Origin: a virus
Taxonomy: Duplodnaviria > Heunggongvirae > Uroviricota > Caudoviricetes
Virus record (IMG/VR): IMGVR_UViG_2511231131_000002
DNA: 62,812 nucleotides
Reading direction: 5' to 3' (one strand)
Shown here: piece by piece, positions 58,901 to 61,900 of the stretch
How the letters are laid out: every line of letters begins with the position of its first letter
Numbering within the stretch: position 1 is the first letter of the stretch
Program-made: the position numbers

Positions 58901-61900
58901 GGCCTGGAAAGTTATCTATTACGCCGATTTTGCCCGTGATGTCGCTGCGCTGTTTCAGCGCCTCGACGCACCTTTTTCATCCGCGAAAATTGCGTCTCTC
59001 GTGGAAAACCTCAAACTGATCGTTCCGCAACAGCAGAATCCGGCGCGGCAACTTATCGGATTTCGCAACGGTGTGCTCGATACCCGGACAGGATTGTTCA
59101 GCCCGCACGATAAGAAGCACTGGTTACGTACGCTGTGCGAGGTGGATTACACGCAGCCCGTTGACGGTGAGTCACTGGAAACCCATGCCCCGGCATTCTG
59201 GCGCTGGCTGGATCGTGCCGCAGGTTTTAATCCTGAAAAACGGGACATTATTCTGGCTGCATTGTTTATGGTGCTGGCTAACCGTTATGACTGGCAGCTG
59301 TTTCTGGAGGTCACTGGCCCTGGCGGAAGTGGAAAGAGTATTCTTGCTGAAATAGCAACCATGCTGGCGGGTGAAGATAACGCGACCTCGGCAACCATTG
59401 AAATGCTTGAGTCGCCAAGAGAACGAGCTGCGTTAATAGGTTTTTCACTGATTCGACTTCCCGACCAGGAAAAGTGGAGCGGTGACGGGGCCGGACTAAA
59501 AGCCATCACTGGCGGCGATGCGGTATCCGTTGATCCCAAATATCAGAACGCCTATTCAACCCACATCCCGGCGGTCATCCTGGCTGTGAACAATAATCCG
59601 ATGCGCTTCACTGATCGTAGTGGTGGAGTTTCACGCCGAAGGGTGATCCTGCATTTCCCCGACCAGATAGCCCCGGAGGAACGCGATACCCAGCTCAAAG
59701 AGAAAATTGCCAGTGAGCTAGCGGTGATTGTTCGCCAGCTTATGCAGCGTTTCAGCGACCCAATGAGTGCCAGGACATTGCTTCAGTCACAGCAGAACTC
59801 CGATGAAGCGCTCACCATCAAACGTGATGCTGATTCAGCTTTTGATTTTTGCGGCTACCTTGAGGTCCTACCTGACACCACGGGCATGTTTATGGGGAAC
59901 GCTAATATTGTTCCACGTCAGCCTCGAACTTACCTCTACCATGCCTATCTGGTCTACATGGAGGCTAACGGCTATAAAAATACGCTCAGTCTGACCATGT
60001 TTGGCAAGGGGCTACCGTTAATGCTCAAGGAATATGGGCTGCAGTATGAGAAACGACGGACCAATCAAGGAATGCAGACTAATCTGGCCCTAAGAGAGGA
60101 AAGCAATGCTGACTGGTTGCCAAAATGCGATGAGTTTGCAGCGAAATAACTGACCTAAGACCGGCTGTGCCGGTCTTAAATCCGCTACAGGAAATTATCT
60201 CAAAATATATATCGATAAAATTTAAAAGTTATATGCTAAGGCGTCAGCGGAAAATGCATCTAATTCATTGTTAGATGATGTTTATTTTTGAATTGATTTA
60301 AACATCCCATCGAGTTGTAATTTATTTATGTCGGTTTTCTTTATGGCTTTAATTAAGTTTTCAATAACTTCCAAAGAAAAAATTACATCTTTCTTTTCAA
60401 TTCTAACCCCCCCGTGGTGGCTGCAAGCATTAAGGATGTCCTTTGTAATTTCAACATCATTTTTCATTAATGGTTCATAGTCCAGAGCCTCAATAACAGA
60501 AACTAAACTACCTAGCATTTGCTCTTGGTATTGAACGTTGTTTAAATGCATTATACGAATATTAACAAGCATGAGAATATATTCTAAATATCTCCTGGCA
60601 GTATTTCCTTTCTCTTGTAAAGAATCACGATCATATTCCTCAATACTCATGACTTCATTATGTAAAGAGGCTATTTTGTGCTCTGCTAATGAAATATTTA
60701 TCGCATCCATGAGGTTTCGTGAGAAGCCTGTAGATGTAACATGACCATTTGCGGGCCTTGTTAAAATACATGTAGTATAGCAATTTATATTTGGGGTCTG
60801 GATTGTCTCATTTACTCTTTTAACCGTTCTATAAACGTCTACCATATAAGAACCTGAGTTTTCAAATGAACATGAAGAGCATTTTGTATTATATATTCTA
60901 TTTAGAGATAACTGATTGTGATAGTATCCCTTTAAGAAAGCATATATAGTGTCATTAAACTCGACAAACACAACGGACTCAATATATATATGGAATTTAT
61001 CATTGGGGTGCCACTCTAATTCAAGTCTTCTTGTAGAGTCATCAAAGGAAAAGTTTGAAATAAAATTCCAGTTACCTAAATCTATAAAATCAACGATATT
61101 TCTACCTGCACCATGGATATTTTTATTTATTAAAGTTGTGATTGAGTTTTTTATAATATCCCAATCATGAATTTCATGATCGAATTTATTATTGATGGTT
61201 TCTTTTATTTGATTGGAAAAGTTTGAATAACTAGTCACTTGTTAGCCTCAAAATTAATAATGAGTATTAAAATTTAATTGATATTGTCTATAAAATGTAG
61301 CGATGCAATTTTATTGCAACGAAATGATTTTTACAACATACCATTATCGCTAAACAAAATCGCACCCATCAAATCAACTTACGTTACAATCACTACAAAG
61401 CGATTGCATTTAAATTCAAAACAGTTTTCTGTTGGGCGCATTTTTTGTTGTACTGGACTAAAGAGAAAAAATGGGGTAAGGAACAAATACCTTCCGTGCT
61501 CAAAAATTAGGTTTTTATGCACTTATTAATCAGTCAAGGTGAACAGTAAAGTGTTCACTTCTTATCAATCGTTAATTTCATATCTTTTTGAATATTAATG
61601 AAAAAAACACAATGAGTAGTATGAACAGTTTTCCCCCAAAAAAAGTTTTTTCTGCCTTGAGAATGCGCGGAAAGCGAACGCCTTCACCAATGTGTATAGG
61701 GGTGTGTGTAGTTTAAATCTTCTATTTTAATTTATGTATTAAAATCATTGTGTTGGTGGCGATTATTGGTTCCTATTATCGCACCATTTAAATCAAGTAG
61801 TTACCCCATATTTAAATACACCACGTTTCCTCCTGTGCCGCATTTGTGCCATTGTAACCCTGGCAATTAATCAAAATACTGTTCTGACATCAGGCAATGC

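Follow-up and report, generated by a model that had tools for sequence, protein, structure and literature searches.

A stand-alone AT-rich gene between the alpha primase gene and attR of a P4-like satellite encodes a candidate sensor-HEPN defence protein

Single-protein abortive-infection systems in which a sensor is joined to a HEPN effector are an already known kind of bacterial defence. In RAZR, a zinc ribbon is the sensor and a DUF4145/HEPN domain the effector; the protein cleaves single-stranded RNA once a phage portal or ring protein has activated it (PMC13017515). Tha-1 and Tha-2 of Staphylococcus aureus prophages are proteins of 301 residues with an N-terminal domain of unknown fold and a HEPN domain at residues 184-296; their genes lie at the integrase/att end of a temperate element, and the proteins are abortive-infection RNases triggered by phage tail proteins (PMC11087260). 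In DS-11, a CBS domain that binds adenine nucleotides is joined to a HEPN effector, and the system was validated with catalytic mutants (PMC13092281). The signature of HEPN domains is Rx4-6H, in which a polar residue (N, D or H) stands right after the arginine, together with an upstream Ex3[KR] motif (PMC3710099). P4 satellites have a minor defence hotspot between the primase gene and an att site, which holds 7% of P4 defence systems (PMC13586616). Here we describe a gene that occupies this position in a P4-like satellite contained in the IMG/VR virus record IMGVR_UViG_2511231131_000002, a stretch of 62,812 nucleotides that was analysed as a whole and is called the window below. The gene (60282..61238, minus strand) encodes a protein of 318 residues that is predicted to consist of a beta-rich N-terminal domain and a C-terminal HEPN domain, and we propose that it is a single-protein defence effector.

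The coding sequence of 957 nt begins with GTG and ends with a stop codon at 60282-60284; a Shine-Dalgarno-like GAGG (61246..61249, minus strand), read from the sequence, lies 7 nt 5' of the start codon, and homologues align with the protein from residue 1. An identical coding sequence is found in RefSeq (Escherichia coli O55:H7 CB9615), where the product, WP_000205214.1, is labelled 'hypothetical protein'. The initial annotation described an orphan gene convergent with the alpha primase-helicase gene and much lower in GC content than the satellite backbone. Orientation and composition were as described, the alpha gene being located at 57759..60149 on the plus strand and the GC content being 0.311 for the 318-residue reading frame versus 0.522 for alpha, but the gene is not an orphan. 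A word-indexed search found homologues in 36 clusters formed at 90% identity (44-80% identity to the query), which come from Citrobacter, Providencia, Pantoea, Pectobacterium, Proteus, Aeromonas, Serratia, Salmonella, Klebsiella and Enterobacter as well as from a second E. coli clade, and an exhaustive profile search extended the family to 108 clusters at 50% identity, 64 of them at E<=1e-10 and most of them about 320 residues long. Further members occur in Vibrio cholerae, Marinobacter and metagenomes, all of them labelled 'hypothetical'.

A model of the protein was obtained with AlphaFold2 from an alignment of 33 sequences (mean predicted local distance difference test score 87.7; predicted template modelling score 0.83). 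The N-terminal part (approximately residues 1-165; 60744..61238, minus strand) was modelled as an alpha/beta domain composed of two helices and about ten strands, with a predicted topology like that of YojF, ChuX and PH domains; as modelled, it is a new domain that has no close structural relative, and it is putatively a sensor or ligand-binding domain. The C-terminal half (approximately residues 170-318; 60285..60731, minus strand) has the predicted fold of a HEPN domain. The two domains are found together nearly always, and few fragments among the 108 clusters match one domain alone. Longer relatives of 470-610 residues have extra regions that carry no Pfam or PADLOC annotation, and these fusions gave no clue to function.

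Residue conservation was examined in an alignment of 65 sequences that includes relatives at 17-30% identity. The strictly invariant residues, R215, E219, H274 and G277, are all in the HEPN domain, and N212, L222, Y237, G243, L245, N270 and S273 are at least 90% conserved (N270, 94%; S273, at least 94%). The segment R-R-Y-L-E-Y-I-L-M (codons 215-223; 60570..60596, minus strand) is at the position of the Ex3[KR] motif, and E219-x3-K223 fits this motif, residue 223 being lysine in 83% of the relatives and methionine in the clade of the query. The segment N-A-C-S-H-H-G-G (codons 270-277; 60408..60431, minus strand) is at the position of [R]x4H, where N270-x3-H274 fits the part of the signature in which a polar residue is followed by the histidine, and Leu269 replaces the arginine. 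The HEPN families Parep1/8 and c2405 likewise keep the histidine without the arginine, and other conserved basic residues were suggested as substitutes (PMC3710099); in the 318-residue protein, R215, which is one helical turn before E219, is the obvious candidate for such a substitute. In the N-terminal domain, conservation reaches at least 95% at D50 and D58, 83% at D53 and at least 90% at W76 and P162; F51 and W57 are conserved as well, and position 58 is D or N (N in the query). The alignment suggests that the D, F and W residues form a conserved acidic-aromatic patch. The statement in the initial annotation that the protein has no recognizable motif thus holds at the level of sequence profiles, but not at the level of the fold and of the HEPN-type signature, which emerged from the AlphaFold2 model and the 65-sequence alignment. 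Even with the 65 diverse members as queries, the profile matches were faint, with DUF4145 detected at E 0.042 in 2 of them and AAA_13 (the PrrC/RloC family) in 3. No Pfam match was obtained with 33 close members, no Pfam HEPN family reached the gathering threshold, and searches of PDB sequences with two profiles returned designed helical proteins only.

We compared the locus with sister satellites, and the results bear out the earlier proposal that the gene is accessory cargo at the edge of the satellite, just inside a remnant of the att site. The remnant (attR; 61771..61854, plus strand) is a degenerate copy of the thrW 3' end and the chromosomal flank (86% identical to 1428-1513), and the gene lies 530 bp away on its inner side; the other end of the satellite is marked by attL, a perfect 45-bp copy of the thrW 3' half (48873..48917, plus strand) just upstream of the integrase gene. 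When the window was aligned by blastn with the satellite of E. coli TOE3 (L022), homology of the backbone stopped at 60177 and restarted at 61536, and the gap between the two in TOE3 was 20 bp. The window thus has an AT-rich insert of 1,358 bp (60178..61535; GC 0.309), which consists of the coding sequence together with about 100 bp on its 3' side and, on the 5' (promoter) side, about 300 bp. Three sister satellites with the same backbone and the same thrW site, in which the 3' end of alpha is 78-91% identical, differ precisely in the slot between alpha and attR: in E. coli 23CRST009 it holds a gene for an HNH protein that matches the PADLOC model mREase_IV (8e-11), in E. coli 22AR0322 it holds a gene for a 365-residue SIR2-like protein (PADLOC, 3.5e-9), and in E. 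coli TOE3 it is empty. The 318-residue gene is missing from all three, and a P4 core gene was therefore rejected as its identity. Its position between alpha and att, the variable occupancy of the slot among relatives and the defence-type alternative occupants are those of cargo in the primase-att hotspot (PMC13586616). The two alternative occupants could be further one-gene defence candidates; the SIR2-like protein (L021:6943-8040) is annotated 'hypothetical', and the HNH protein (L020:6957-7814), of 285 residues, resembles type IV methyl-directed restriction enzymes.

Alpha forms the left border of the slot, and between the convergent genes lies a GC-rich hairpin (60152..60182), which is the alpha terminator of the backbone and is terminator-like on the minus strand also. 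The hairpin is conserved in TOE3 (L022, 6855-6885), where it is followed by TTTTTTT, whereas in the window it is followed by AAATCC; the T-tract present in TOE3 and lost in the window indicates that the cargo was inserted directly after the stem, removing the plus-strand T-tract. The same hairpin, with a T-rich tail on the minus strand, could terminate transcription of the 318-residue gene. At the right junction, an inverted repeat, GTGAACAGTAAAGTGTTCAC, is located at 61539-61558 and is kept in the empty slot of TOE3 (L022, approximately 6898-6920); it may be a binding site for a protein, or it may mark where recombination or insertion in the slot took place. A promoter scan gave nothing above chance, and Rfam gave chance snoRNA matches only between 60000 and 62000. 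The 5' non-coding part of the insert also contains a reading frame of 83 codons with a TTG start (61278-61529, plus strand), divergent from the 318-residue gene, which is probably spurious, since the DNA there is conserved with no homologue locus.

The genomic contexts of homologues were examined, and their neighbours were frequently found to be defence genes. The Citrobacter homologue is in an integrative and conjugative element (ICE), between an N6/N4 methyltransferase gene and ArdC and near a type I restriction-modification (R-M) system and an AAA_15 gene. The Providencia homologue comes directly after ogr/delta in a P4-like element that also has a gene of the dCTP-deaminase family, and that of Providencia sp. 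PROV230 is in an AlpA/integrase island. In the second E. coli clade (L012:11446-16327), the gene comes directly after an integrase gene of the thrW site and is followed by PDC-M60 (A, B, C), a three-gene candidate for a defence system; this compact two-system island is at the same tRNA locus as the satellite of the window. A homologue on a metagenomic contig adjoins a NERD+UvrD gene, and those of Proteus, Serratia, Aeromonas and Marinobacter are in lone islets. In V. cholerae, a cassette of the superintegron carries the homologue; 132-nt V. cholerae repeats (VCRs) flank the cassettes, and the upstream neighbour of the homologue is different in each of three strains (L024, L025 and L026), with a downstream acetyltransferase gene common to L025 and L026; Abi_2, putAbiC, GmrSD plus HEPN_RiboL-PSP, and ParE/Phd are encoded by nearby cassettes. 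In L025, the VCR-bounded interval (5601-7361) also encloses a phd-parE pair, so that either a VCR has degenerated or both travel as one cassette.

The downstream neighbours show no similarity to one another across the homologue loci, no neighbour gene is conserved, and similarity of the DNA between the loci is confined to the coding region, no flanking non-coding DNA being conserved. The unrelated neighbours and the coding-only similarity indicate that there is no conserved partner protein, antitoxin or RNA. The homologues travel alone, and the gene is a horizontally mobile single-gene module. A two-gene system was ruled out by the unrelated downstream neighbours, and a type II R-M system, which the adjacent N6_N4 methyltransferase gene in Citrobacter could have indicated, was ruled out because the methyltransferase partner is found in no other context. 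The GC content of the gene is 0.28-0.35 in every host, including loci at 0.57-0.62.

The allele of the window is present in approximately 306 of 5,426 complete E. coli genomes, which belong to the O157:H7/O55:H7 lineage, and it is intact in them with at least 99.8% identity; the second E. coli clade was found in 17 genomes. The ratio of nonsynonymous to synonymous substitution rates (dN/dS) against the two closest homologues was 0.064 (Citrobacter) and 0.132 (Providencia), which argues that the family is under strong purifying selection. Conservation well outside this island, together with the absence of the gene from the sister satellites, bears directly on the proposal of the initial annotation that it might be a single-gene abortive-infection or exclusion factor, and this proposal has gained computational support from the lack of a conserved partner, the predicted HEPN fold, the defence neighbours and a published prediction described below. 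The family was virtually absent from 50,697 phage records and from plasmid collections, with one weak phage match and one partial plasmid match, and a Foldseek search of BFVD gave no match at E<=0.001. The sole phage relative found is in Psychrobacillus phage PVJ1 (L017:4362-5474), a hypothetical protein of 370 residues with 29% identity over the HEPN half, whose gene follows ssb, methyltransferase and recU genes close to an end of the phage genome. This is a hint that Firmicutes phages carry at least the HEPN half.

An earlier computational study has flagged the same family as defensive. Table S10 of the DefensePredictor work (Science 2026, PMC13092281), which contains predicted uncharacterized defence clusters of the E. 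coli pangenome, includes the cluster with the representative WP_000205214.1 as 'Predicted novel defense gene' with a mean log-odds of 8.5, compared with the stringent cut-off of 4 (PMC13092281); the entry is WP_000220589.1, a 321-residue E. coli homologue. The HHblits analysis of that work gave a weak link to PD-Lambda-5_A (probability 61.7, coverage 0.38; PMC13092281). The family has thus been flagged by machine learning, and as far as we could find it has been neither named nor interpreted structurally in the literature. In PADLOC-DB v2, which includes the PD-T4, PD-T7, PD-lambda and PDC candidates, no family matched the query at E<=1, and ten distant relatives gave nothing at E<=0.001, the sole match being a marginal one to JetB (E 0.0025) for P0037.

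Taken together, these results lead us to consider it probable, if only just so, that the 318-residue protein is a single-protein sensor-HEPN abortive-infection defence effector. The gene is stand-alone accessory cargo of the minor alpha-attR defence hotspot, and its product, according to this proposal, would be a two-domain sensor-effector. The C-terminal HEPN domain would be the effector and, by analogy with other HEPN proteins, would probably dimerize and act as a metal-independent RNase, with a catalytic site formed by H274, N270 and S273 together with R215, E219 and K/M223 of the neighbouring helix. The N-terminal domain would hold the effector off until it bound a cue of infection, either a phage protein or a small molecule; binding would then release or assemble the HEPN dimer, and the active HEPN domain would cleave RNA of the cell or the phage, and the ensuing arrest of translation would abort the infection, so that the clonal population and the resident satellite would be protected. 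The analysis shows the reading frame with its conservation and purifying selection, its status as cargo and its mobility as a single gene, and the modelled HEPN fold with its set of conserved residues; RNase activity, dimerization, sensing by the N-terminal domain and an anti-phage phenotype are what we infer from the model and the contexts. Actual RNA cleavage by the HEPN domain, which is suggested by analogy, we place somewhat short of an even chance and thus lower than the defence role, because the arginine of the motif is missing.

Several observations weigh against this proposal. None of the 65 relatives has arginine at position 269, where L, A, S or T is found instead, so that Rx4-6H is not present in any of them, and the absence of the canonical catalytic arginine throughout the family means that the domain could be non-catalytic. 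No significant match to the query was obtained in Pfam, PADLOC, PHROGs, NCBIfam or PDB sequences. The contexts in Serratia, Aeromonas and Marinobacter lack recognizable defence neighbours, and guilt by association is suggestive but falls short of proof. The overall rate of experimental validation of DefensePredictor was 45% (PMC13092281), the signature peptides of the family are absent from its tables of cloned and validated systems, and a main-text literature search found no experimental data for any accession of the family.

The missing arginine is the basis of one alternative, in which the HEPN domain binds RNA, nucleotides or protein without cleaving and the protein is a regulator or adaptor, or a counter-defence protein or decoy; it could, for example, modulate the interplay between satellite and helper or the physiology of the host. 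HEPN domains that lack the motif can indeed serve in regulation or substrate binding, MtlR and the C-terminal domains of nucleotidyltransferases being examples (PMC3710099). However, the histidine, the preceding polar residue, the acidic residue of Ex3K and R215 are invariant or nearly so among relatives at 17-30% identity, which is a typical active-site pattern, and Parep1/8 and c2405 retain the histidine and have substitute basic residues despite having lost the arginine (PMC3710099). A counter-defence gene would moreover be expected in phages, yet the family is virtually absent from the phage records and from BFVD. We therefore regard a non-catalytic HEPN protein as unlikely, though as an alternative that has to be taken seriously. 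One could also envisage that the conserved aspartates D50, D53 and D58 form the metal site of a novel nuclease or hydrolase, and that the HEPN domain serves only for dimerization or regulation. The degree of conservation of these residues and of W57 and W76, and the almost constant coupling of the N-terminal domain to this HEPN domain, are compatible with such an arrangement; nevertheless, no strictly invariant residue lies outside the HEPN domain, and we see only a slight chance that the key activity resides in the N-terminal domain.

HEPN proteins are common toxins of toxin-antitoxin (TA) systems, for example in HEPN-MNT and RnlA, the gene is always on mobile or variable DNA, and in one V. 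cholerae strain it comes right after phd-parE, seemingly within the same VCR-bounded interval; these observations would be explained if the gene were a toxin-type addiction or stabilization module that ensures the selfish upkeep of the island, ICE or integron cassette and is not concerned with phage defence. A type II TA system has an adjacent antitoxin gene, but no such gene is conserved in any context examined, no conserved flanking non-coding RNA was found, and an unopposed constitutive toxin could not persist in stable lone carriage in approximately 306 complete O157/O55 genomes. We accordingly consider addiction very unlikely. The Lamassu system in the main hotspot of the same satellite is degraded, and the element is therefore partly decaying, which would fit a reading frame that is itself decaying or non-functional; the reading frame is nevertheless intact in all of those genomes, the dN/dS values are 0.06-0.13 and the AlphaFold2 model is of high confidence. 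Decay, and likewise a P4 core gene misread as cargo, which is contradicted by the sister satellites of the same backbone, can be regarded as already refuted, with a negligible probability left to them.

The proposal of a sensor-HEPN defence effector can be taken one step further, to a new class of single-protein immune sensor that would combine a rebuilt, arginine-less HEPN site with an N-terminal domain sensing a small molecule. The nuclease site would be formed by R215 of the neighbouring helix, E219, N270 and H274, and what the undescribed YojF/ChuX-like beta domain detects through its invariant acidic-aromatic pocket would be a conserved small molecule and not a phage protein; the cue could be a nucleotide- or tetrapyrrole-like metabolite that is produced or depleted during infection. 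Sensing of a small molecule would explain the conservation of the pocket from Enterobacterales to Vibrio and Marinobacter. We consider this joint reading decidedly unlikely in its entirety.

The P4-like satellite occupies approximately 48.9-61.8 kb of the window and has the gene order int, Lamassu genes, delta, psu, sid, regulatory genes, alpha, the 318-residue gene and attR. Intact thrW (tRNA-Thr) is at 1369-1444, and homology with the core genome begins again at approximately 61765-61771 in about 3,400 E. coli genomes. The backbone between the cargo and the att core (61536..61770) presumably represents an attP arm. A 22-nt direct repeat, AATGTGTATAGG(A/G)(T/G)TGTGT(A/G)TA, has two copies that are 86% identical, one beside int (49028-49049) and the other just inside attR (61689-61710), which are candidates for arm-type integrase binding sites of the satellite attP. 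The intact tRNA gene and attL of the satellite are about 47 kb apart, with other integrated DNA in the interval, so that thrW carries a tandem array; the proximal part of this other DNA contains type III secretion system effector genes (espM2 and an NleB-family gene) according to the annotation of CB9615, and tRNA-Asn and tRNA-Gly genes are located at 16465-16698. The main hotspot, from int to psu (50265-53540), is occupied by the Lamassu system, which appears to be degraded: LmuA is split into reading frames at 50265-50681 and 50654-51271 (profile positions 10-140 and 141-333), LmuC (51256-51729) is intact, and LmuB, like LmuA, is in two parts, at 51695-52906 and 52974-53540 (profile positions 3-385 and 428-608). 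The gene in the alpha-att slot is therefore the only intact candidate defence gene of the satellite.

Practically all of the E. coli O157:H7/O55:H7 lineage carries the gene, yet its product is a 'hypothetical protein' everywhere. If the protein is an active abortive-infection RNase, it would add a new sensor domain and an arginine-less solution to the HEPN active site to the repertoire of bacterial immunity, and it would provide a concrete and clonable example, 1.36 kb in size, for the little-studied primase-att hotspot of P4. An active system may also affect the phage susceptibility of a major food-borne pathogen, and hence phage therapy and biocontrol. In any case, the structure and the contexts provide an independent rationale for one of about 1,000 untested DefensePredictor clusters.

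RAZR, Tha and DS-11 are functional analogues with the same layout as that predicted here, and are themselves proven abortive-infection RNases. Compared with other P4 hotspot cargo (Rousset 2022, PMC9122126; PMC13586616), the 318-residue gene is alike in being a variable AT-rich accessory gene of a P4-like satellite, but it lies outside the main int-psu hotspot, and the architecture of its product matches none described for the systems tested in those studies. The P4 construct designated 'O157:H7 FRIK944' (Rousset 2022) is a cytidine-deaminase system from a different satellite and so is not this gene. RAZR has a Cys4 zinc ribbon as its sensor and an Arg...His pair, R146 and H154 (PMC13017515), whereas the 318-residue protein has a beta-rich, YojF/ChuX/PH-like domain of about 165 residues and lacks the arginine of the motif; the two show no sequence similarity, and the PADLOC models, including those of the PD systems, give no match. 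Tha is nearly identical in size and layout, and its R265-N-S-I-M-H270 (PMC11087260) corresponds to L269-N-A-C-S-H274; Tha has the canonical arginine and a cognate inhibitor, Ith, whereas no partner was found for the 318-residue protein. When the family profile was aligned by hhalign with 80alpha gp03, the probability was 0.3%, and Tha-1 was set aside as a homologue; it is an analogue. DefensePredictor, which flagged the 318-residue family, is also the model behind DS-11, which too is a single protein with a ligand-binding domain and a HEPN effector, but its CBS domain differs from the N-terminal domain described here, and it has been validated whereas the 318-residue family is only predicted (Table S10, PMC13092281). 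In its active site, the protein resembles the arginine-less HEPN families (Parep1/8 and c2405) and the DUF4145-like clade (PMC3710099), in which the histidine is kept, the arginine is lost, a substitute basic residue is found elsewhere and Ex3[KR] is present, although that study does not list the N-terminal domain described here as a fusion partner of HEPN. The kind of system and the computational prediction of a defensive nature are thus known already, and what this candidate brings is a new N-terminal domain together with an arginine-less HEPN site.

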